Positions 6,937-28,562 of a stretch of DNA of 64,000 nt are shown in pieces. Position 1 is the stretch's first letter. Every line of letters starts with the position of its first letter. The translations under genes were made by a program, and so were the position numbers. A model generated the notes under the pieces. The model saw only the letters and a program-made list of their open reading frames with translations, had not been told where the DNA came from and did no database searches. This DNA is from an uncultured delta proteobacterium (GTDB lineage: Bacteria; Desulfobacterota; Syntrophorhabdia; Syntrophorhabdales; WCHB1-27): NCBI GenBank assembly GCA_963749525.1, contig CAVVNC010000011.1, forward strand, positions 5,450-69,449, written 5' to 3'.

Positions 6937-7614
6937 TCAGGAGGCATACCATCTAGCCAGCCTCTCCGGAGGAACGCCCAGGAGATAGAGCAGCATAATC
7001 GCCCAGTTCCTCGCGGTGCACCGCAGGACCCCCTCCTGTTCCCACCTGCGGGCGGACGTCTTCACTTTCTCATGGATGATGAAGATCCTGTCTCCCCCTG
7101 CTCTTAGGCGCCTCATGAGGTCCACGTCTTCCATGAGGGGTATGTCCCTGTAGCCGCCTATCCGCATGAAGCAGTCCCGCCTGAGGAAGATGGCCTGGTC
7201 GCCGTATGGTATCCTCGTCAACCGGGACCGAAAGGATGCGACACATTCGATGACGCGGAAGATCGGGCCTTTTGCGTCTATGGCCAGATCAAAGGCCCCG
7301 CCCGCGAAGCATCCTTTCAGCATTACCGAGGAGATGGAGCGGAAGGCGTTTGCAGGCAGCTCTGTGTCAGCGTGGAGGAAGACGAGGATGTCCCCTCCTG
7401 CTGCCCGGACCCCCCTGTTCATCTGCCGGCCCCGTCCCGCGTCGGAGGGGACCAGGAGCGCACGATCGGGGGTCACGGCCTTGAGGGTCCCGCCTTGTGG
7501 GTCCCCATCCACCACGACGATTTCGATTGCCCCGTCCATGGCACGGATACGGTCGATCGCGCCATTGATGATCGCCTCTTCGCCGAGCACGGGGATGATG
7601 ACCGATATTCTCAT
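6937..7614 (-). CDS. TIGR04283-type family 2 glycosyltransferase (arsenosugar-cluster associated)
   Basis: ISVIIPV, GRGRQMNRG, FLHADT, YGDQAIF, LMEDV, TSARRW motifs. Confidence 0.9.
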   Translation of the reverse strand: MRISVIIPVLGEEAIINGAIDRIRAMDGAIEIVVVDGDPQGGTLKAVTPDRALLVPSDAGRGRQMNRGVRAAGGDILVFLHADTELPANAFRSISSVMLKGCFAGGAFDLAIDAKGPIFRVIECVASFRSRLTRIPYGDQAIFLRRDCFMRIGGYRDIPLMEDVDLMRRLRAGGDRIFIIHEKVKTSARRWEQEGVLRCTARNWAIMLLYLLGVPPERLARWYAS

Positions 7615-7615
7615 G

Positions 7616-8305
7616 TCACCGACGAAAGCGGCGGCGCAGAAAATCGATTGTCGCCAGAGTCCCGTCCGGGAGATCTCCGTGCGCGTCGAAGAGCGCCAAA
7701 AGGTCCGCGTACTCGTCCACGTCGCGCCAGGGAGGCAGGACGTGAACCCTCAGGCCGTTACCCTTTAGGACATTGAGAGTGCTCCGAAAGACCGATGGGC
7801 CGCCCCACTCCATACCTGAGAAAGGGGCAGGCAGGAAGGCTCCGGAAGAAAAACCTATGAGATAATAGCCGCCGTCAAGGGCTGGGCCTATGACGGCTTC
7901 ATGCTGTCGGAGGCTCTCGAAGGCCTCGTTGAGGAAAGGGACGGGAAGATCAGGGATATCGCTTCCCATGAGAACAGCCTCACGAGCGTCGGAAAAGGCC
8001 GTGCGGAAGGCGCCGCACATCCGCTCCCCGAGATCATGACCCTTCTGCGGCAGGCAGGGGAGCTCTTTGCCAAGCCCGAAGGGAACCTCACGGGAGCGGG
8101 CCTTCGGGAGGAAGAAGACAGTCGTTGGAAAGCCTGCCCGCCTCGCAAGGGAGAGGCTGTCGGCGACGAGGCACCGGTAGAGGGCGAGAGCCGTCTCTTC
8201 CCCGATTGCCCGGGCGAGTCTCGTCTTCACCCTCCCCTTTTCAGGGAGCCTCACGAAAAGGAGGAGTCGTCTTCCGCCACTCGCGCGGACCAATGGACTC
8301 CTCAT
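7616..8305 (-). CDS. TIGR04282-type (CofC-like, DUF2064) glycosyltransferase
   Basis: GRVKTRLA, DLGERM, GSDIPDL, GPALDGGYYLIG, DVDEYADL; ATGA overlap with upstream gene. Confidence 0.9.
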   Translation of the reverse strand: MRSPLVRASGGRRLLLFVRLPEKGRVKTRLARAIGEETALALYRCLVADSLSLARRAGFPTTVFFLPKARSREVPFGLGKELPCLPQKGHDLGERMCGAFRTAFSDAREAVLMGSDIPDLPVPFLNEAFESLRQHEAVIGPALDGGYYLIGFSSGAFLPAPFSGMEWGGPSVFRSTLNVLKGNGLRVHVLPPWRDVDEYADLLALFDAHGDLPDGTLATIDFLRRRFRR

Positions 8306-9264
8306 GCAACCTGACCCTGGCAAGAGCTTCCCGAGCCTGCGGTGCACCCGTAGCAATGATCGCCGATCACGATTTCGCGGCCGACGAGCCTCTCTTTGTC
8401 AAAACCGGAAATATGGTCCGGGAGGCCGTGGTCAATCGGCAGGCCCAGCACCTGGTTAAAGTCGCAGTCGTAGAGCCTCCCGTTCCAGCCCACGGAGACC
8501 ATGGATCTGCACATCAGCCCTTTCAGGCTTTCCGGATTGAAGGCCTTGATGAGGGTCCTCATGTAATCCTCGTAGTTATCCGTTCTTCGCAGGTATTCGA
8601 GATATCTCCCTATGGGCATGTTGTTAATGGAGAAGAGGCGGGTGAACGATACGCCGTACCTCTCGCGAAGGGCGGCCCGATAGCTCGATTGCAGGGCCTT
8701 CTGGGTGCCGGGCAGATAGGCGCCGGCAGGGTTGTGGACGAGCGTCAGGGGAAGGCCTGTACCCTCTATGCCATAGCCCCTCGCGTTAAGCATGCGGATC
8801 GCTTCGATTACCCTATGAAAGACGCCGGTCCCCCGCTGGCGGTCAGTGATCTGCGGATCCACGTGGGGCAGGGAGAGGACGATTTCGGCGCGGCTGCGCA
8901 CATAAAGATCGAGGAGCGGCGCGCAATGTTCATCGAGAAGGAGCACGCCGTTGCTCCTCACGAGCAGCCGGCGATCAAGCCTTGCGCACTCCCCCACGAA
9001 CCAGGAAAACAGGGGATGCAGCTCGGGGCTGCCGCCCGTGATGTCGATGGTCGAGAAGGGAGTGGTTCGGATCACCCTCAGGCATTCCTCCATCACCTCC
9101 CTAGTCATGGCCTCGGACCTCTGCGGGCCTGCCTGGACGTGGCAGTGCCTGCATTCCAGGTTGCATCGGTACCCTATGTTGATTTGGAGGGTCTCGACGC
9201 CTGACGCCCTCAAGGGGGTGGAGACCATCTCTTCGAAGGAAGGGCTGATCTTCGGCATAGCCAT
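8302..9264 (-). CDS. arsS: ArsS-like radical SAM protein (TIGR04167 family, Cys form)
   Basis: CNLECRHCH, DITGGSPE, YDCDFNQ, C-terminal HCYGCTAGSGSSC. Confidence 0.88.
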   Translation of the reverse strand: MAMPKISPSFEEMVSTPLRASGVETLQINIGYRCNLECRHCHVQAGPQRSEAMTREVMEECLRVIRTTPFSTIDITGGSPELHPLFSWFVGECARLDRRLLVRSNGVLLLDEHCAPLLDLYVRSRAEIVLSLPHVDPQITDRQRGTGVFHRVIEAIRMLNARGYGIEGTGLPLTLVHNPAGAYLPGTQKALQSSYRAALRERYGVSFTRLFSINNMPIGRYLEYLRRTDNYEDYMRTLIKAFNPESLKGLMCRSMVSVGWNGRLYDCDFNQVLGLPIDHGLPDHISGFDKERLVGREIVIGDHCYGCTAGSGSSCQGQVA

Positions 9265-15742: not shown

Positions 15743-16544
15743 ATGGCAAGTGATCGCGAAGAGCTGCTGAAGCGCGCACGTACGGCGACAATTCTGCCGA
15801 TGTTGAGCGGTATGATGAACGAGACATTCAGGATCATGGCCGACCCTGATTCATCGTTCGGTCAGCTTTATGACGTCGTGAAATACGACCAGGCCATTTC
15901 TTCGAAAATCATCAGCATCGCCAACTCCCCTTACTACAACAGAGGGACGCCGGTTGTGAGTCTCGAGAGAGCGATGGTGATGGTGGGCTTCAAGGAGATC
16001 GAAAGGATCATCATGTGCCTGGTTTTCATGAAGCAAATCATGACACCGTGGAGGCTTGGACAGGATGACTTGGCGGCCATATGGGAACACTCCCTCACGG
16101 TTGCGCACGCGGTAAAAACGCTGAGCGCGAAAACGAGCTTAGAGGAGTCGGAGAAAGCATTCGCGATTTCCATCGTCCATGACATAGGGAAGATCATTTT
16201 CTATACCTACGACGGCGGCTACAGGAGCCTGGCGAAAGAAGCGGCCCTCGGGAGTCGGGACGTCTGCGATCTCGAGCGTGCCCGATACGGAATCGACCAT
16301 CAGGAAATAGGTCACCTTATGTCAGTAAAATGGGGGTTTCCCGAGGGAGTTCTCCGAGGCGGTCAAGGACCACCACAGCCCGCTCGACGGGAGAGTACCG
16401 GTCATCGATGTCGTGAGGGACGCCGACGCGTTCGCGTGCGGATCGGGGAGATACCTGCCGGAGAGCGAAAGAATAATCCTGCAGAACGAAAAAGAGCTGA
16501 TAGGGACAGAAACCGAGCGCATAAGACGGCTTGTAGGGATATAG
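15743..16544 (+). CDS. HDOD domain protein, frameshift near 16345
   Basis: ANSPYY, WEHSL, HDIGK, DHQEIG; continuation DHHSP...RLVGI-stop in a shifted frame. Confidence 0.85.
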
Positions 16545-16624
16545 GCCACGGAGAGAGACCCAACGGCTCGGTCTCACCTTTTGCCGCGCGGACATCGGGA
16601 GCCGTGATATTCGCATCCGGCAGC

Positions 16625-17470
16625 CTAAGGGTTCTTCGATTCCGTTTTCTTTGCAGGGGGACCCCAGGTGAGGAGGTAGGCCACGTAGAAGAAAGAATTT
16701 GCAGGGCCATGGATATCCGTGCCCGCCGAACCGATGAGATGATGCTTTTCCGAGAAATTCACGATTAACCCCACGTTGTACCCTGTTTCGTACTGCCCGT
16801 CGGTTGTGGGCGGCGTCGTGTGAAACAGCTCGGCCCCAAGGGTGAGCCATGTGAAGATGTCCCGCTGAAGTAGCCAGCCGCCGTACCAGTAGTCTCTGTT
16901 GCCCCTGCCCGGGTTGATCCAATACCCTCCGCCGCCGTAGGTTGTCCAGGGCCCCCAGCTTTTCTGCAGCCACAGGGGGATGAAGGAGTGGAGCCTGCCG
17001 GTGCCCAGACCACGGGCCTCGCTTCCGGCCGGGACCTCGAGGAGGGGAAAGACACCAGCCATGGGGGCATAGTCGGATTCCTGGAGAAACCGGTACTTGA
17101 CCCCGAGTTCAACGTCGCCGGGACCAAGCAGGGTTGGTCCGTGGGCCGGACGATCAAAGGCAAGGGGCGCGAGAAGATGGAGCTGAAGGTTCTCCATCGG
17201 CCCGTAGTTGACCTCGAAATGGGGGGACGTGCCCGAAAGATCACCCCGCTCGTTCTGGTATTCGGTTGCCGTGTAGAATTCCCAGTGCCTGTAATCGACC
17301 GGCTCGGGGTCGTCGGTGCGAAAGGGCGGCCCGGCAAGTGCGGCGGTTGCCAAGCCCAGGGCGCAAAGGACGAAGAGAGCAGCGAAGAACCTTTGCAGCT
17401 TTCCCTGGCCGGTGCGCCGGCTTGCAGCTCGCCGGCGCGGCCGTCGCACGACCTTCCCTCTTAGCAGCAT
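16625..17470 (-). CDS. Exported, putative outer-membrane beta-barrel ('transporter') protein; true start probably near 17400
   Basis: Signal peptide ending ALA-GPPFRTDDPEP; amphipathic aromatic-rich strands. Confidence 0.75.
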   Translation of the reverse strand: MLLRGKVVRRPRRRAASRRTGQGKLQRFFAALFVLCALGLATAALAGPPFRTDDPEPVDYRHWEFYTATEYQNERGDLSGTSPHFEVNYGPMENLQLHLLAPLAFDRPAHGPTLLGPGDVELGVKYRFLQESDYAPMAGVFPLLEVPAGSEARGLGTGRLHSFIPLWLQKSWGPWTTYGGGGYWINPGRGNRDYWYGGWLLQRDIFTWLTLGAELFHTTPPTTDGQYETGYNVGLIVNFSEKHHLIGSAGTDIHGPANSFFYVAYLLTWGPPAKKTESKNP

Positions 17471-17559: not shown

Positions 17560-19371
17560 CTATTCCATTACTTCTTGCATGACGTAATCACCATACCGGT
17601 CGACAAGGGGCTGCCGAATCTGTATCAGATCATAGGACCGCTTGACTGCCAAGGCAAACACGATGATTACCAAAGCCATGATGATAATCGAGAGACCGGC
17701 GAGGAGATGCTCTCCCTTGGGCAGGTAATTCATCGTGATATTGAGGTACCCGGCATAGAGTGTCGTAAAGGCCATGACGATACCCGGGATGGCAGTGATC
17801 GCCACGTATCTCATTTTCCCCATCCTGAGGAGCATGATAGTGCCGATGATCAGGGCGCTTGCGGCAAGGAGCTGGTTGCTCATGCCGAAGAGCGGCCAGA
17901 TTGTCGTGATATCGCCGGTGAAAACAAGGTAGCCCCAGGCGCCTGTGAAAAGAAAGCTGGTGATCAGGATACCGGGCATCCAGCGCTTTTCCAGAAACTT
18001 GGGAACGACCTTGCCGATCATTTCCTGCACGAAGAACCTTCCCACTCTCGTGCCCGTGTCAACGGCCGTCAGGATAAATACGGCTTCGAACATGATGGCA
18101 AAGTGGTACCAGTAGGACATCAACCCCTTCATGAAGGGAACGGCGGAAAAAATGTAGGCCATACCCACGGCGAGCGATACCGCACCACCCGGCCGCCCCT
18201 GAACTTTCTCCTGCACCTCTGAGGCAAGCTGCGGAAGATTGACCGGGACCATCCCCAGTTTTGCGTAAACCGCGGGCGCCGCGTTGATGGCGAAATAGTC
18301 CGCCGGAATAAGGACGCATGCCGCAATAAGGGCCATGATAGCCACAAACCCTTCAACGAGCATCGCACCGTAGCCGATAAACAGGACGTCCCGTTCGTTG
18401 GCGATCATTTTCGGTGTCGTTCCCGAACCGATGATGGCGTGGAATCCCGATAGGGCACCGCAGGCGATCGTGATCATGATGAACGGATAGACGGCGCCCG
18501 GAACGATCGGACCGCCGCCATGGATATAGGGCGTCAGGGCAGCCATATGGAAATCAGGCCGCATGATCAATATACCGCCGGTCAACATGGCGATGGTGCC
18601 TACCTTCAGAAATGTCGTGAGATAGTCGCGTGGGCAGAGCAGCATCCAGACCGGAAGAACCGAGGCAACGAAGCCGTAGAGCGGTATGATAAGAGATATC
18701 TTCCTCTTCGAGAGGGTGAATATGGCAGACAAGGTTGGGTTTGCCGCGACATAAGGACCGGCAAGGATCGCCAGAAAAAGAAGGACAACGCCGATGATGG
18801 TCGCCCCTTTTACGTCGCCCTCGCGAAATACGTGAAGGTAAATCCCCATGATGAAAGCGATCGGCATTGTGGCAAAGACAGTGAAAGTTGCCCAGGCGCT
18901 TTCGAACATGGCGTTGACGACAGCGATGGAAAGGCCGGCTAGGGTGAGAAGGAGAATGAAAAGAAAGGCGAAGGAAGCGACAAGTCCGGCAGATTTGCCT
19001 ATTTCGCTTTCGGCGATTTTCGAAAGGCTCTGCCCCTTATGTCTTACGGAGGCGAAAAGCACGACCATGTCATGAACCCCGCCTGCCAGTACCGCACCGA
19101 TGATGATCCAGAGCGCCCCGGGCAAATAACCGAACTGGGCGGCCAGCACCGGTCCCAGGAGGGGACCGGCAGCGGCAATTGCGGCAAAGTGATGGCCGAA
19201 GAGCACATACCTGTTGGTCTTCACGTAATCATGGCCGTCAGCCATCGTGACGGCGGGAGTGGCTCTTTTCGCTCTCAGATTGAGAACTCTGTTCGCGATG
19301 AACAATCCGTAATAGCGATAGGCAAGCGCGAAAACACACAACGAAACGATCACGAGCGTCAATGCATTCAT
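17560..19371 (-). CDS. cstA: Carbon starvation protein A family transporter (peptide/pyruvate)
   Basis: DGHDYV, LFGHHFAAIAAAGPLLGP, TIACGALSGFH, IWPLFGMSNQLLA. Confidence 0.95.
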   Translation of the reverse strand: MNALTLVIVSLCVFALAYRYYGLFIANRVLNLRAKRATPAVTMADGHDYVKTNRYVLFGHHFAAIAAAGPLLGPVLAAQFGYLPGALWIIIGAVLAGGVHDMVVLFASVRHKGQSLSKIAESEIGKSAGLVASFAFLFILLLTLAGLSIAVVNAMFESAWATFTVFATMPIAFIMGIYLHVFREGDVKGATIIGVVLLFLAILAGPYVAANPTLSAIFTLSKRKISLIIPLYGFVASVLPVWMLLCPRDYLTTFLKVGTIAMLTGGILIMRPDFHMAALTPYIHGGGPIVPGAVYPFIMITIACGALSGFHAIIGSGTTPKMIANERDVLFIGYGAMLVEGFVAIMALIAACVLIPADYFAINAAPAVYAKLGMVPVNLPQLASEVQEKVQGRPGGAVSLAVGMAYIFSAVPFMKGLMSYWYHFAIMFEAVFILTAVDTGTRVGRFFVQEMIGKVVPKFLEKRWMPGILITSFLFTGAWGYLVFTGDITTIWPLFGMSNQLLAASALIIGTIMLLRMGKMRYVAITAIPGIVMAFTTLYAGYLNITMNYLPKGEHLLAGLSIIIMALVIIVFALAVKRSYDLIQIRQPLVDRYGDYVMQEVME

Positions 19372-19444
19372 GCCCTGTTTCTCCTTGAGTCTCTAGCTGA
19401 GCCACAGTTATTTTACAAAATATGGAGAGTTTTTGAAAGGGCCT

Positions 19445-19920
19445 AGTTTGGGCAGGCGATTATTGGGGCTCGCGTCGCCCCCTCCACAGGCATGAGCCTG
19501 CGGAGCCTCCCCTTCATAAAAAGGAAGAGACGGAAAGGCCGGACCTCACGGGCTACTGGATCGGCTCACCTGCCGGTATACCAGGCGGGAGGGCCGCCTC
19601 TAGATTTTGAAAAGACAGGGTTGTCTTTGTTTGGGCTTCGCGGCAGTGTGGGATCGATAGGGCATGTCCACAAGGCGGTCCCGTCCTTATCTCGTCGTGC
19701 ATAGTCCGAGGACGGCGCAAGAATTGCTCGCGACGAATCCGGACACGTTTAACGAAGCCCCCGCAAGCTTTGCGTGGGGGTTGGGTCTCGCATTTTTCTT
19801 GACCTTTTCCGCCACTGCATATCATGATACTTGAAAGGCAGTAAATCGCGAAGCGAGCATTGAGGGGGAGGCTCCGCAGGCTTACGCCTGTGGAGGGGGC
19901 GACGCTAGCCCCATTAAACG
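19445..19920. repeat. Mosaic of module B, beta-element modules and an inverted module B between the divergent cstA genes
   Basis: Segments nearly identical to 24515-24880 and 55155-55332; module B copies at both ends in opposite orientation. Confidence 0.85.
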
Positions 19921-19933
19921 GAAGGAAGGGATT

Positions 19934-21628
19934 ATGAATGCCGTGTTCGTCCTCGTTCTTGGTTTTCTTGTCTTTTTCATCGGATATCGTTTCTACGCGC
20001 GATACATCGATGCAAAGGTCCTGAAGGCGGATGCGAGCCGTGATACTCCGGCAAAGGTGTACATGGACGGGGTCGAGTTCATCCCCACGAGCAAGAACGT
20101 CCTCTTTGGGTATCAGTTCAAGTCGATCGCAGGCGCCGCGCCCATCATAGGCCCCATCATTGCCATTCAGTGGGGCTGGCTGCCGGCACTCATCTGGATA
20201 CTGGGCGGAGCCCTCTTCATTGGGTGGGTCCAGGACTACTCCAGCGCCATGATCGCCATGCGCAGCGATGGGGCGTCTTTCGGGGGACTCACCCACCGCC
20301 TCATCTCCCCCAGGGCGCGGATCATCCTGCTTTCTTTCCTCTATTTCTATCTCCTTCTCATCGCCGGGGCGTTCGGGAATGTGGTCGTGAGCACGGTCAT
20401 CTCCCTGAAGTCCGCGCCCATGTCGTGGCTTTTCCTTACCATTGCGGGCGTCCTTGCCGGTCAGATGATCTATCGCTGGAAAAGGGATATCCTCCTCACT
20501 ACCATTGTCACGGTCGTCCTCTGTTTCGCGGGCATAGTGCTGGGGAGTGTCGTGCCGTCAGATACCTTGCTCGGCGAAAGCCTCGCAAATAGCAGGTTTG
20601 TCTGGGCGATCGCGGCTTTTGCCTTCTGCTACTGCGCCGCGATCCTGCCAATATGGCGATTCTCGTTGCCTATCAACTACGTGGCCTCATACGTCGTCTT
20701 TCTCGGGCTTTTCTTCGGCATAATCGGGGTGTTCGTGCTCCATCCATCCTTCTCACTTCCCGCGGTGACCACTTTCTCCATCAAGATCGGGCCTGTCTGG
20801 CCGATCATGTTTGTCACCATCGCGTGCGGCGCGGTCTCCGGCTGGCACAGCATCGTGTCGAGCTCCGGGACTGCCCGCCAGCTCGAAAATGAACTGGACG
20901 CCCGGCCCGTGGGGGCGGGGGTCATGTTCGTGGAGATGATACTGGCCCTATTTGCCCTGATCATCGCGGGTACCATCTATGCATCTCCTGCAGCCTACAG
21001 CGCTGCCGTGGCTCTGGGGCCTGGCGCCATTTTTGCCGCAGGCCTGTCCAAGTTCCTCGGCGTGTTAGGCTTGCCCGCGGCCCTTGGCCGGTCGTACGGC
21101 AGCGTCATGATGGTAATCCTTGCCATCACCATCATGCAGCTCATCATCCGCTTCATGAAGCTGGCGACCGCTGAGCTTCTGGGCGATGTGAGCCCCCTGT
21201 TCAAGAACGGCCATATCGCCACCTTCCTGGCGTGCGTGTTCGGCATGGTCCTCGTGCTGACCGGGTGGTATGAGTACCTGTGGGTTCTCTTCGGCGGCGC
21301 CAACCAATTGATGGCGTCCCTGGCGCTCATGCTCGTCACCGCCTGGCTGATGGCCGAAGGAACATCGTATGCCTGGGCCTTCTATCCAATGATTTTCATG
21401 TTCATCACCACCATAGCGGCGCTTTGCTACACGTCCTTCGGGCTCTTATCAAAGGTGGCCACCGGGATGGTGAAGGGCGGGGCCCTCGTGGGCAACACAC
21501 TCATGGGACTGATAGGGCTCTTTCTGGTTGTTGCGGCCTTCGCCCTCGGGATCGAAGGGGTAAAGGCGTTCGCACGCCACAGGCGCGCGAGAAAGGCCGT
21601 CGCGGCGGCGGACGCGGCGCGGGCGTGA
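19934..21628 (+). CDS. cstA: Second, divergent CstA-family transporter
   Basis: DGVEFIP, LFGYQFKSIAGAAPIIGP, TIACGAVSGWH, LFGGANQLMA. Confidence 0.92.
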   Translation: MNAVFVLVLGFLVFFIGYRFYARYIDAKVLKADASRDTPAKVYMDGVEFIPTSKNVLFGYQFKSIAGAAPIIGPIIAIQWGWLPALIWILGGALFIGWVQDYSSAMIAMRSDGASFGGLTHRLISPRARIILLSFLYFYLLLIAGAFGNVVVSTVISLKSAPMSWLFLTIAGVLAGQMIYRWKRDILLTTIVTVVLCFAGIVLGSVVPSDTLLGESLANSRFVWAIAAFAFCYCAAILPIWRFSLPINYVASYVVFLGLFFGIIGVFVLHPSFSLPAVTTFSIKIGPVWPIMFVTIACGAVSGWHSIVSSSGTARQLENELDARPVGAGVMFVEMILALFALIIAGTIYASPAAYSAAVALGPGAIFAAGLSKFLGVLGLPAALGRSYGSVMMVILAITIMQLIIRFMKLATAELLGDVSPLFKNGHIATFLACVFGMVLVLTGWYEYLWVLFGGANQLMASLALMLVTAWLMAEGTSYAWAFYPMIFMFITTIAALCYTSFGLLSKVATGMVKGGALVGNTLMGLIGLFLVVAAFALGIEGVKAFARHRRARKAVAAADAARA

Positions 21629-21882
21629 ATTACCGCAATGAGTTGTGGACCTGAGGATGAAGAGGAGGAAAGCAACGACCATTGCGGACGGCGACAGAAA
21701 CGAGCGAAGCGAGGCTTAAGGGGGGAGGCTCCGAGGCTTGCCACTGAGGTGCGGTTCCAGGCGAGCGAAGCGAGTCTCTGAGGGGGGAGGCTCCACGGGC
21801 AATGCCAGCGGAGGGGGCGCTGAGCCCCAATAATAGCGCGCGAGAAAGGCCGGCGCGGCGGCGGACGCGGCGCGGGCGTGAA
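21583..21882. repeat. 47-bp direct repeat of the cstA 3' end flanking a 206-bp insert that holds a double module B
   Basis: GCGCGCGAGAAAGGCCG(T/G)CGCGGCGGCGGACGCGGCGCGGGCGTGAA at 21583-21629 and 21836-21882. Confidence 0.9.
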
Positions 21883-21930
21883 GGCTCGCAGTATTGTCTT
21901 TAAGGTGAGGAGAGAAGGAGGCAGGGAGTC

Positions 21931-22200
21931 ATGGCACAAGAGGACAAGAAAGGCGGTCTGTTTCGGACGATCAAAGACTTCGTTTACGGAGCGGCCGCTC
22001 ACGACTCCGCCCGGTCTGCCCTTAAATCAAAATCAAACATGGAGCACCTTTTCATGGTCATCACCGTAGGTGACATGCTCGGGGTCCCCGTGATGCCCCC
22101 CTACTATTCTCTCCGGCTCCTGCCGCACCTTGTTCCGAAGATAGCGACGTGGAAGAGGAGGATGCTCAGGGAAAAAGACCTTACTGACGGGTTCGGATAG
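21931..22200 (+). CDS. Small CstA/ArsA-associated protein resembling the cory-CC-star family but without terminal Cys-Cys
   Basis: EHLFMVITVGDMLGVP...YYSLRLLP...WKRRM pattern; GGGAG RBS; lies between cstA and the ArsA-like genes. Confidence 0.75.
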   Translation: MAQEDKKGGLFRTIKDFVYGAAAHDSARSALKSKSNMEHLFMVITVGDMLGVPVMPPYYSLRLLPHLVPKIATWKRRMLREKDLTDGFG

Positions 22201-22222
22201 GAGGCAAGAGTGCGGACAATAT

Positions 22223-22369
22223 AGCGTTCCGCAGAATTCATTCCCGTTACCGACCGGCTCCATCTTTTCCTTCGCTACGATAGGCTCCGCTTTAGGAAAA
22301 GATTACGCAGCGAAAGTCTCACTTTCGCGAATACGCCGGGGCGGTCGTTACTTTATTCTGCGGAACGCT
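22223..22369. mobile_element. MITE-like element, family F, copy 1 (147 bp)
   Basis: Perfect 15-bp TIR AGCGTTCCGCAGAAT / ATTCTGCGGAACGCT; near-identical copy at 30617-30736. Confidence 0.85.
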
Positions 22370-22438
22370 CTAGATAATTCGGGCAAGCCGGCCCTCTCAC
22401 CATCCGGGGATCATAGGGTCGACCCAGGATAAGGAGGT

Positions 22439-23412
22439 GTGCCATTTCTCTCGCAAGGATCTTCGAGGAGCATCCTGAGAGGCGCTACATCATGCTCGGA
22501 GGCAAAGGCGGACTCGGGAAGACGACCCTCTCGGCGGCGACCGCATACTATCTCGCTAATCAGGGCAAGCGGGTCCTCGTCTTCTCCGTAGATCCCCAAG
22601 CTTCTCTTTCCGATATCTTTCAGCGGGACATCTTCGGCAAGGGACCGACTGAGATCATTCCGAATCTTTATGCCCAGGAGATCGATGGGGCCTCAAGGCT
22701 GAGGGAGCACCAGCTGGAGATCCGCCAAAAGATCCTCGACATGTATGGAATGGAAAAGGTGCCCGACGAGATAGAGAGCCACATCCAGGCCGCCGCAACG
22801 AGGCCGGGTATGGAGGAGAGCGCGGCTTTTGACGCAATGGTCGATATCGTGGTAAAGGGCGGATATGATTACTATGTCTACGACCTCGTGCCCCTCGGCC
22901 ACGCCTTCCATTACCTGAGCATGGCCTCGGTTCAGAACGCCTGGATCGGCAAGATGACCGGGCTCAGGGGAGAGATGCGGGAGCATGACCGCGTGGCGGC
23001 TGTCATGCGCAGGGACAAGGAAATGGACGAGGACGCTATCCTCAGCGAGCTCCTCCACACTAAAGAACGCTTGAACAAATCGTCGGCCATCCTTGCGGAT
23101 AGGGAGAAAACGGCCTTCTTCCTGGTTCTGACTGCGGAAGGAGCGGTTATCGACGCGACGTTAAGGGCGGTCGAGCTTCTAGCGAAGTACGACGTGCCGC
23201 TGGCCGGCTGCATCGTCAACCGCGTGCTCCCCGATTCCCTGAAAAGGCAGGAGATACCCGACTATCTGAGGAGCCGGCTCGCCATGCAGGAAGACTACCT
23301 CAAGAAGGTAGGAGATAGATTCGCGGGGCAGATCCTCGCCTCGGTTCCCGAGATGGCGAGCGACGTCACAGGGCTTGCCATGATCGAGAGGCTCGCGGCA
23401 GCCATGTTCTGA
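22439..23412 (+). CDS. ArsA/Get3/TRC40-family ATPase 1; start probably displaced by a 1-bp error near 22441
   Basis: GGKGGLGKTT deviant Walker A, SVDPQASLSD, DLVPLGH, IVNRV; AAGGAGG at 22431 precedes open frame AISLARIFEEHPERRYIML. Confidence 0.88.
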
Positions 23413-23435
23413 AAAGGCCGCGCACGGAGGCGATT

Positions 23436-24419
23436 GTGGAAGGGATCTTCACGGGCATGAGGCAGTTCATGGAAGGGAACCCCGGCCTCAAGTATATCTT
23501 CTTCATGGGCAAAGGCGGCGTGGGGAAGACGGTAATGGCCGCCGCCGCGGCCCTCTGGTCCGCTAAGAGAGGCAGAAGGACGCTCCTTGTGTCCACGAAC
23601 CCGGTTCACAGCCTTTCCGATCTCTTCGGACAGGATGTCTTCGGAAAGCCCGCGGCTGTCTGCAACGAGGAGCGGTGCCATGCTTTCGAAATTGACACCC
23701 ATGACACCATCGAGAAGTCCAAGCAGCAGATCCGCGATAAGATCGGCTGGTTCCTGAAGTCCGCCGGCATCACGACCAAGGCGGAGGATTTCCTAGAACC
23801 GGCGACGATGAATCCTGCCCTAGAAGAATCGGCTATGTTCGAGAACATGATGGACCTCATCTTCAGGGACGAATACGATTTCTACGTCCTCGACACGCCG
23901 CCCTTCGCCAGCGCGCGGAGACTCCTCGGCATGGGGAAGGTATACTCCCTCTGGGTGGAGAAGATGCTGAAGAGCCGGGAAGAGGCCAAGTCCCTGCGGG
24001 AGGCCCTGTCCTTTTCAAAAAAGCAGCAAGACGACCCCCTCATGGACTACCTGTTGGGCTTACGAGAGAGGATGTCCAAGGCAGAGAAGCTACTCGCCGA
24101 CAAGGCCCTCACAGCCCTCTTTTTCGTGACCGTCCCGGAGAGCCTTCCCATTGCCGTCACCGCAAGGTTCATCGACTGGTCTTCCGGAATGGGCATGCCC
24201 GTGGGCGGGGTTATCGTCAACGGAGTGATGCAGAAAGGCGAGATCAACGAGCGCACCGCGGAGTTCGTGAGGAGCAGGATAGCGATGCAGGACGAGCACA
24301 TGGCAGAGATCCGCTCCCGATTCAGCGAACGGGTGAGGGCGGTCATTCCGCTTTTCGAGACAGAGGTCAAGGGCAGCGCCATGCTGGAGCGGATGGGCAC
24401 ATACCTCTTTGCCCCGTGA
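23436..24419 (+). CDS. ArsA/Get3/TRC40-family ATPase 2
   Basis: GKGGVGKT, STNPVHSLSD, DTPP, PESLP, IVNGV, IPLFETEVKG. Confidence 0.9.
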   Translation: MEGIFTGMRQFMEGNPGLKYIFFMGKGGVGKTVMAAAAALWSAKRGRRTLLVSTNPVHSLSDLFGQDVFGKPAAVCNEERCHAFEIDTHDTIEKSKQQIRDKIGWFLKSAGITTKAEDFLEPATMNPALEESAMFENMMDLIFRDEYDFYVLDTPPFASARRLLGMGKVYSLWVEKMLKSREEAKSLREALSFSKKQQDDPLMDYLLGLRERMSKAEKLLADKALTALFFVTVPESLPIAVTARFIDWSSGMGMPVGGVIVNGVMQKGEINERTAEFVRSRIAMQDEHMAEIRSRFSERVRAVIPLFETEVKGSAMLERMGTYLFAP

Positions 24420-24440
24420 GCCGCCCTTACGTCGTGTCAT

Positions 24441-25107
24441 GGGGCGTGAAAAAAGGGCTTCGGGTCTATATGCAGGTTCGGCCGGTCCGCATGAAGGAAT
24501 CGCGAGCAATTAATGGGGCTCGCGTCGCCCCCTCCACAGGCATAAGCCTGCGGAGCCTCCCCCTCAATCTCGCTTACGCTCGTGTGTGCCGTTTGCGCAC
24601 CGTCCATTAGCCGCCGGAATTGAACCAACGGTCGCCAATTCCGGCTTTTAGAGGACGCTTGAGCGACTATTGGATCGGCGGCCTGCCGGAATACCAGGCG
24701 GGAGGGCCGCCTCTGGATTTTGAAAAGACAAGCTTTTGGGCTTCGCAAAGGTTGGGATCGATAGGGCATGCCCCCAAGGCGGTCCCGTCCTTATCTCGTC
24801 GTGCATAGTCCGAGGACTACTTAGAAAAGCTCGCGACGATTCCGGCACGAATAACGAATGCCCCCGCAAGCTTTGCGTGGGGGTTGGGGGGAGTGAGGGA
24901 CTTAAATGAGGAGCGATGCAACGAGCGAAGCGAGGCTGAGGGGGGAGGCTCTGGCGGCTTATGCTGCCGGAGGGGGCGCTTAAGCCCCAATAACTGCGGC
25001 GAGCACGCACGAGGTAAGGACGGGACCGCCTGCCGGTAGGGGAGAATCAGTTTCGTACGTTCCTTAAGTCTCTAAGCAGCTTAAACCTATACTCGCCGGC
25101 CCAAACC
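24441..25107. mobile_element. Longest beta-type composite repeat (about 670 bp), containing two module B copies
   Basis: Perfect 16-bp IR GGCGGTCCCGTCCTTA (24778) / TAAGGACGGGACCGCC (25030); colinear with the reverse complement of 43919-44360 and with 54805-55332. Confidence 0.85.
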
Positions 25108-28399: not shown

Positions 28400-28562
28400 C
28401 GAGCGAAGCGAGCCACGGACAGGCCGAGCAAAGCGAGGCTTGAGAGGGAGGCTCCGGAGGCTTGGCCACTGAGGTGCGGTTCCAGGCGAGCGAAGCGAGT
28501 CTCTGAGCGGGGAGGCTCCGCAGGCAATGCCAGCGGAGGGGGCGCTGAGCCCCAGTAATAGC
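28400..28562. repeat. Double module B repeat
   Basis: Near-identical to 21699-21837, including linker GCCACTGAGGTGCGGTTCCAGGC and end GCTGAGCCCCA.TAATAGC. Confidence 0.85.

Follow-up and report, generated by a model that had tools for sequence, protein, structure and literature searches.

A conserved gene cassette of a CstA-family permease, a small CstX-type protein and two Get3/ArsA-class ATPases with complementary motif changes

Why should a permease gene of the CstA family be followed directly by genes for two ATPases of the Get3/ArsA class? The question is raised by a 64,000-nucleotide (nt) stretch of DNA, referred to here as the window, from an uncultured delta proteobacterium of the Syntrophorhabdales (assembly GCA_963749525.1, contig CAVVNC010000011.1, positions 5,450 to 69,449 of the forward strand), whose metagenome-assembled genome is 80.7% complete. 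The open reading frame (ORF) list of the window places four genes on the plus strand between positions 19934 and 24419: cstA2 (19934-21628), the first gene of the cassette, encoding a divergent CstA-family permease of 564 amino acids (aa); cstX (21931-22200), encoding a protein of 89 aa; and two ATPase genes, referred to as A1 (22444-23412, 322 aa from an ATT start) and A2 (23436-24419, 327 aa). A preliminary description of this DNA had reported four co-oriented genes here, and both the ORF list and the family scans found them in place. A1 and A2 passed the cut-off of TIGR00345 (TRC40/GET3/ArsA; 135 bits) with 224.6 and 198.8 bits, respectively, and matched the Pfam family ArsA_ATPase (E 3e-67 and 1e-60). 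We propose, with a probability of about 0.45, that the four genes are a single operon encoding a CstA permease complex that carries an asymmetric Get3/ArsA ATPase heterodimer, by which transport would be driven or gated.

The cassette was found to recur as a unit. A scan for cstX in one genome per species gave at least 613 pattern matches, of which 600 were confirmed; the 80 best of these were carried forward as loci (L001 to L080, with L001 the closest relative of the window). At least 1.8 kb of upstream sequence was available in 68 of these and at least 2.4 kb of downstream sequence in 70. Directly upstream of cstX and on the same strand, a CstA2-type gene was present in all 68 testable loci, and A1 followed by A2 was present downstream in all 70, so the gene order, which the preliminary description had proposed to survey, is conserved. 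The cassette is real and robust, and far beyond chance, since it recurs in hundreds of genomes.

The hosts of the 80 loci were mostly Thermodesulfobacteriota (Syntrophales, Syntrophobacterales, Syntrophorhabdales, and Desulfomonilaceae), and some host records were labelled Nitrospirota, Spirochaetes, WOR-3, Phycisphaerae, Leptospirales, or Hakubella; in total, the cassette was carried by 600 or more of the sampled genomes, which span many phyla. Within the phylum of the window, the small gene was found in 43 of 301 sampled genomes (34 of the 259 of good quality). Many of the carriers in this phylum are peat and sediment anaerobes, and DNA near-identical to the window was found in peat metagenomes. 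The cassette is a patchy accessory system. When the flanks were searched for further partner genes, no family was common to more than 11 of the 80 loci.

The two ATPases, which are 32% identical to each other, were compared motif by motif. In the window, A1 has the P-loop GGKGGLGKTT, an Asp at switch I (Asp50 in SVDP, 22591-22593), and DLVPLGH at switch II (residues 147-153, 22882-22902), with residues numbered from the ATT at 22444. A2 has the P-loop GKGGVGKTV, an Asn at switch I (Asn55 in STNP, 23598-23600), which aligns to the Asp of archaeal Get3, and DTPPFAS without the Gly-His at switch II (residues 153-159, 23892-23912). The motifs therefore read as the preliminary description had given them, including the KGGxGKT P-loop kept in both proteins. 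Among the orthologues, the P-loop GGKGGLGKTT of A1 was found in 68 of 70 rows, the switch I Asp in 69 (one gapped), and DLVPLGH in 66, the remainder being DLAPLGH (two rows), DMPPLGH (one), and a gap (one). The P-loop GGKGGVGKTV of A2 was found in 67 of 68 rows and the switch I Asn in all 68; switch II was DTAPTAN in 65 rows, DTAPAAQ, DTAPAAS, and a gap accounted for one row each, and Gly-His was found in none. The signature Lys was kept in both. The STNP and DLVP substitutions, which the preliminary description had allowed might be decay in a single genome, are thus fixed across orthologues. On these alignments, the motif changes are best described as fixed family traits and not as decay.

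Relatives with a single ATPase provided the comparison. The small gene of these relatives belongs to the cory-CC-star family (NF041419), and it shares the context of cstX, with a CstA2-like gene on one side and the gene of a Get3/ArsA ATPase on the other. The actinobacterial phylum that holds L070 was sampled with 301 genomes, and 17 of these carried true cory-CC-star genes (above the cut-off); a wider tally of any cory-CC-star match gave 22, including one genome that is flagged as unpublished and on which no other result depends. Of 12 cory-CC-star regions that were fetched, ten comprised a CstA2-like gene, the small gene, and one Get3/ArsA ATPase gene. The other two comprised two small genes followed by A1, with A2 also present in the one whose contig extends further. 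The single ATPases had STDPAH at switch I in ten of ten cases; at switch II, nine read DTAPTGH and one read DTAPSGH. Unlike the cory-CC-star systems with one ATPase of canonical motifs, the window cassette has two with altered motifs. The canonical motifs of the single ATPases suggest that degeneracy goes with the presence of two subunits and is a property of the two-subunit version, a pattern that duplication followed by specialisation of the two members of an obligate heterodimer would be expected to leave.

A tree of 39 rows was consistent with this. It comprised 14 A1, 14 A2, the ten single ATPases, and a further ArsA homologue found in the window genome; for A1 and A2, the window was joined by 13 loci that we selected out of 63 with complete genes, and the root was not established. 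Branch support was 100/100 for the A1 clade, 100/99 for the A2 clade, and 99/96 for A1 plus A2 against the single ATPases, and the sub-branching ran in parallel within A1 and A2. By this phylogeny, A1 and A2 diverged long ago, and each has been conserved as a clade of its own. That the two ATPases are degenerate in a fixed and complementary way, while their single-ATPase relatives have canonical motifs, is in our view a new point.

Taken together, the conserved unit, the fixed motifs, the parallel A1 and A2 clades, and the canonical single-ATPase relatives support an obligate asymmetric A1/A2 heterodimer with one putatively catalytic and one putatively degenerate site. In the proposed mechanism, the heterodimer would sit on the cytoplasmic face of CstA2, and A1 and A2 would pair by the nucleotide sandwich typical of the class, giving two composite sites. 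The site based on A1, in which Asp50 and the Gly-His are kept, would hydrolyse ATP, and the site based on A2, with Asn55 and without the Gly-His, would bind ATP without turnover and keep the dimer closed. CstX would dock the ATPase onto CstA2, and ATP binding and hydrolysis would be coupled to CstA2 transport, as a drive or as a gate; ArsA, which makes ArsB an ATP-driven pump, is a precedent. Arsenic itself would play no part. The order of the genes, their families, the fixation of the motifs, and the branching of the clades are what the analysis shows; the heterodimer, the dead site, the linker role of CstX, and the coupling to transport are proposed.

The cluster type has been in print since 2010, in agreement with the remark of the preliminary description that CstA/ArsA neighbourhoods are noted but uncharacterised. 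Castillo and Saier (2010; PMC2963123) counted 26 occurrences of cstA together with arsA homologues, cstX being present in 24 of these; reported that CstA, CstX, and the ArsA homologues co-evolve and that CstX never occurs without CstA; and proposed that the ArsA homologue energises CstA, with CstX (~90 aa) as a linker. The paper also describes adjacent ArsA pairs in Pyrobaculum arsenaticum and Symbiobacterium thermophilum, the replacement of the Asp of S-x-D by Asn only, and single-domain ArsA homologues (~330 aa) without the ArsA Cys set. The window cassette resembles the clusters described there in its CstA, its CstX of ~90 aa, its single-domain ArsA homologues of ~300-340 aa, its common orientation, and the lack of ars genes. 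The word heterodimer is absent from that paper, which contains no experimental test and describes neither a fixed defect split between subunits nor a non-AUG start. No experimental follow-up of the proposal was found in the literature searched, which left most subscription journals outside. The cassette is a further case of a cluster type that is already described. Of the interpretation in the preliminary description, an asymmetric heterodimer unrelated to arsenic stands as the best reading, while the energising idea itself is not new.

Three known systems resemble parts of the cassette. As in ArsA-ArsB, an ATPase with a deviant Walker A motif and a DTAP-type switch II would be attached to a secondary carrier (PMC2963123), although the attachment is here a proposal. 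ArsA differs in being one polypeptide of two domains with a metalloid-binding Cys set, whereas A1 and A2 are separate genes without such Cys; the carrier partner is ArsB for ArsA and CstA here, and the extra small protein is found only here. The two nucleotide-binding halves of ArsA are non-equivalent. The layout of the P-loop, switch I, and switch II and the Met-containing helical subdomain are shared with archaeal and eukaryotic Get3/TRC40. Get3, however, is a homodimer with a CxxC zinc clamp and the catalytic Asp in both protomers, while A1 and A2 are two different subunits that have no CxxC, with Asn in A2. In yeast Get3, Asp57 is catalytic, and the D57N variant binds ATP without hydrolysis (PMC12506534). 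A precedent for paired Get3-like ATPases is the mycobacterial BagAB (PMC10597346): BagA and BagB (Rv3679/Rv3680) are encoded by adjacent genes, and their products are found together in chains A and B of structure 6bs3. The relationship is distant, as A1 and A2 scored 47.5-54 bits against the BagA and BagB families (NF053622 and NF053621), below the cut-offs of 400 and 521, and matched the 6bs3 chains with E values of 5e-10 to 4e-8.

Concerning cysteines, alignments to solved structures placed no CxxC in A1 or A2 at the position of CEFC/CDFC in archaeal Get3, as the preliminary description had claimed. Its statement that an arsenite-binding Cys set is absent also held, but it had overlooked a Cys-x4-Cys pair of A2 (Cys76 and Cys81, 23661-23678) located just past switch I, which is not the ArsA set. 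The two residues are the only Cys of A2, their columns are filled by Cys in 80% and 84% of the orthologue rows, and the pair is absent from A1, which has one Cys and no conserved Cys column.

Several points weigh against the proposed ATPase-linked permease complex. The contacts among CstA2, CstX, A1, and A2 are all ones that we infer. CstA proteins characterised elsewhere are proton symporters that work without an ATPase, and the word symporter is also part of the NCBIfam name. The switch II of A1 is itself altered, so hydrolysis by A1 is presumed, and the presumed catalytic subunit mostly begins with the weak codon AUU, an odd feature in a protein that would pair 1:1 with A2. Naturally fused proteins, which would speak for contact, turned up only as singletons: three CstX-ArsA fusions among 31 longer CstX proteins (a clean in-frame CstX-A1 fusion, a read-through of the spacer, and an apparent frameshift) and one A1-A2 fusion among seven long A1 relatives. 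As single sequences and possibly errors, the fusions were set aside as evidence of contact. A complex prediction of A1, A2, and CstX made without ATP gave a score that was not specific against one control, and it was used neither for nor against binding.

Two further counterpoints concern the class of the ATPases. Both are closest to archaeal Get3, a chaperone and not a pump subunit: the best solved relatives of A1 were 3zq6 (E 3e-55) and 3ug6 (E 1e-52), those of A2 were 3zq6 (E 3e-47) and 3ug6 (E 4e-47), and these matches were far better than those to E. coli ArsA 1f48 (E 9e-34 for A1 and 4e-29 for A2). The helical subdomains are also Met-enriched, and in each of them some five Met columns are conserved. 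The Met-containing helical region that the preliminary description had noted in A1 was present (nine Met in 130 residues, 86-215; 6.9%), and A2 is similar (eight in 130; 6.2%). These features are compatible with a dedicated Get3-like chaperone, in which A1/A2 would shield hydrophobic helices and deliver or assemble CstX or segments of CstA2, with ATP paying for biogenesis and not for transport; we consider this unlikely. The same helical subdomains are 30-33% charged, the CxxC that clamps the Get3 dimer is missing in both proteins, and a private chaperone maintained across hundreds of genomes for a single protein of 89 aa seems costly.

The candidate client, CstX, also bears on the chaperone role. 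A hydrophobic stretch is present at residues 40-54, where the preliminary description had seen a hydrophobic core, but it is short and only borderline: the Kyte-Doolittle average over 19 residues peaked at 1.38 in the window protein and at 1.38-1.62 across 31 orthologues. An invariant Gly-Asp lies inside the stretch, and Pro-Pro-Tyr-Tyr and then a basic tail of 30 residues come after it, so that CstX is not tail-anchored; the corresponding stretch of the alignable cory-CC-star relatives contains Glu and Asn. PMC2963123 calls CstX a protein with a single transmembrane segment; the hydropathy, the invariant Gly-Asp, and the Glu and Asn of the cory-CC-star relatives put that label in doubt, and this doubt is a new point. 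The stretch is probably not a true transmembrane helix, and in our reading CstX would be a small, helical docking protein that is either peripheral or re-entrant. The suggestion of the preliminary description that the ATPases insert the transporter by a Get3-like groove is weakened by the same borderline hydrophobicity and the same Glu and Asn.

CstX was conserved from end to end among the 31 orthologues, with 38 of its 89 columns invariant and a mean column identity of 88%, compared with 84% for A1 and 79% for A2. Conservation over the whole length fits a hub with several interfaces, as the proposed adaptor of the permease complex would be. AlphaFold2 predicted CstX alone as three helices (residues 9-30, 34-49, and 57-88) with a low confidence (mean predicted local distance difference test, pLDDT, of 58.8), which was too weak for a fold search.

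The family assignment of CstX was indirect. A scan of a Pfam copy that lacks the PF25952 model gave no family match, and the match to cory-CC-star (NF041419) over residues 29-82 reached 39.8 bits, below the cut-off of 80. The label DUF7990 (PF25952) rests on the annotation of homologues 67-98% identical to CstX and on Atlas cluster names; all of the best 120 homologues carried it. A profile search gave 422 representative clusters, and of 4649 candidates, 4648 were homologues at E <= 0.001. The C-terminus is Gly-Phe-Gly in the window protein and Cys-Cys in cory-CC-star. Judged by score and alignment, CstX is classed as a distant relative of cory-CC-star and not a member, and this link is new. 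A second and more divergent CstX copy (39-57% identical) was observed in L004, L012, L020, L021, L025, L031, L035, L059, L066, L076, and L078 and in further genomes of the phylum, located either upstream of the main copy in a tandem arrangement or immediately past A2 on the other strand. Five tandem CstX-CstX proteins of 163-213 aa were found among the longer matches, one of which was read and confirmed to contain two copies. A small partner of the YbdD/YjiX type (PF04328) was not found in the genome.

The start of A1 differs from that in the preliminary description, which had begun the ORF at the ATG at 22492; we place it 48 nt upstream, at the ATT at 22444. The reading frame is open from 22417, and the ATT comes 6 nt after a Shine-Dalgarno sequence, AAGGAGG (22431-22437). 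Relatives conserve, at the protein level, the 16 residues ahead of the ATG, which extend the strand before the P-loop, and at the DNA level AGGAGGTG-N5-ATT ahead of A1 was conserved between the window and L001. The aligned start codon in 68 orthologues was ATT in 49, ATG in 14, ATA in four, and ATC in one, with a Shine-Dalgarno-like word at -18 to -4 in 62 of the 68. Of the 54 orthologues with a non-ATG start, 15 reach a stop upstream before any canonical start in the same frame, and in 52 the next canonical start lies two residues before GGKGG and would remove a core strand. One contig from an RNA library starts at 22461, upstream of the ATG. On the Shine-Dalgarno spacing, the conserved residues, the aligned codons, and this contig, A1 almost certainly starts at ATT 22444, and the near-cognate start appears as a conserved trait of the gene, which is a new point. 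Standard ORF callers shorten A1 to the ATG two residues before the P-loop.

A start that is non-ATG, and mostly the weak AUU, in 54 of 68 orthologues suggests a tuned level of A1 and would suit a gate that follows the energy state. In such a gate, the heterodimer and CstX would open or close CstA2 according to ATP/ADP without powering it, so that the flux of carbon compounds follows the energy charge, and A2 would be the sensing site. The conservation evidence that supports the proposed complex supports the gate equally; the dead site of A2, which by analogy to the effect of D57N in Get3 may still bind nucleotide through a site with Asn55, would suit a sensor; and the patchy distribution in the phylum is that of an accessory system. 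The present data do not separate gating from energising, but the catalytic Asp and the Gly-His are kept in nearly all A1 sequences, which argues that hydrolysis matters, and we consider a gate that does not power transport unlikely.

That A1 and A2 are subunits of an arsenic/antimony pump or decaying duplicates is very improbable: the Pfam name of both proteins is "Anion-transporting ATPase", and the window A2 departs from the consensus of its family, but TIGR04291 (ArsA) gave 93.5 bits for A1 and 94.1 for A2 against a cut-off of 650, each protein is single-domain and without the ArsA Cys set, no match to the ArsB family was found in the 80.7%-complete genome, and both frames are open with their "defects" fixed in 68-70 orthologues. 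The preliminary description had also reported no ars genes adjacent to the cassette, and none were found among the window neighbours that were scanned, although no profile search for Acr3 or ArsR was made. The departures of the window A2 are Met24 before the P-loop, where the other members of its clade have Gly, and TPPFAS instead of TAPTAN, and its end branch is long (0.27, compared with 0.084 for its nearest relative). Relaxed selection or an assembly error could account for them.

If the proposed complex is correct in its driving form, the cassette would join ArsAB as the second example in nature of a secondary-carrier fold coupled to ATP, with an obligate heterodimer of one live and one dead site, a DUF7990 adaptor, and an A1 subunit kept scarce or tied to growth by its AUU start. 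We put this extended version forward as a tentative one, possible but open to considerable doubt. ATP-binding cassette (ABC) transporters with a degenerate site are comparable to a heterodimer of one live and one dead site. CstA-family permeases are widespread carbon-scavenging transporters, none of which, as judged from the lack of matches among solved chains, has a solved structure, and the function of their ATPase-linked version has been a bioinformatic proposal since 2010. The catalytic split between A1 and A2 bears on how the Get3/ArsA class couples to membrane partners and on whether bacterial Get3-like proteins act in transport, regulation, or membrane-protein biogenesis.

The permease itself was assigned by profile. 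CstA2 matched Pfam CstA (PF02554; cut-off 27 bits) in two stretches with 461.7 bits and reached 211 bits against the equivalog NF011590 (pyruvate/proton symporter CstA), below its cut-off of 1188. By these scores, CstA2 is assigned to the CstA family, and its substrate is not inferable from the equivalog score. No match to the CstA2 protein was found among solved chains. A canonical-type CstA gene, CstA1 (17560-19371, minus strand; 603 aa), adjoins the cassette as a divergently oriented neighbour outside it; its product matched the full Pfam profile with 702.2 bits and is 29-30% identical to CstA2. Such a CstA1-type gene adjoins the cassette in five of 80 related loci (L001, L028, L030, L033, and L058). 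Compared with five canonical sequences, a loop of ~25 residues is missing in 57 CstA2-type sequences (the window and 56 orthologues), and several motifs conserved in canonical CstA are changed in the same 57. All 11 CstA genes located beside cory-CC-star or CstX genes in the fetched regions were closer to CstA2 than to CstA1.

Contigs of RNA libraries from two studies matched, at near identity, all of cstX and parts of cstA2, A1, and A2. They were patchy and gave no single transcript, spanning neither the cstA2-cstX nor the A1-A2 junction, and with DNA carry-over possible, the support that they give to the proposed operon is weak. Promoter and terminator patterns around the cassette were no commoner than in shuffled sequences, and a scan of 19300-25100 against Rfam with E values up to 0.1 gave no match.

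The spacers within the window cassette were enlarged by repeats. Between cstA2 and cstX lies a window-specific insert of a dispersed repeat of ~205 nt (~21630-21835; family D7, with 238 blastn matches on 48 contigs), which is flanked by a duplication of 47 nt (21583-21629 and 21836-21882) covering the end of cstA2 as well; in L001, this spacer is 54 nt. The spacer between cstX and A1 (22201-22443) was enlarged by another dispersed repeat (43 matches on 16 contigs), compared with a median of 116 nt in relatives and 55 nt in L001. In L048, the gap between cstX and A1 is 1.2 kb and contains two unrelated, overlapping ORFs of 195 and 137 aa (7405-8372), which may, at a guess, be a toxin-antitoxin-like pair of the nucleotidyltransferase/HEPN type; this insertion indicates that the spacer tolerates insertions.

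Dispersed intergenic repeats also lie upstream of the cassette (19456-19920; families D3, D4, D5, and D8 and inverted pairs I1 and I2) and downstream of it (24506-24990). A 59-nt inverted repeat and direct repeats of ~480 nt flanking the cassette were considered as the ends of a mobile element and rejected as its boundaries, as they are dispersed genome-wide (291 blastn matches on 46 contigs for the upstream element and 366 on 51 contigs for the downstream element). Short dispersed intergenic repeats are abundant in this genome, with 43-366 matches per element on 16-51 contigs, and another was found at 28423-28562.

Gene models elsewhere in the window and the genome showed irregularities. An ORF with an HDOD/HD domain (15743-16768) matched Pfam in residues 18-203 only; its other ~135 residues have the look of low-complexity read-through, and this tail overlaps a minus-strand ORF (16625-17470), so that a frameshift or a mis-extended ORF is possible. 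Two more ArsA-family genes of the genome look split, one on contig C23 (15579-16474) into three pieces and one on contig C50 (25463-26366) into two, and these could be frameshifts or assembly errors.

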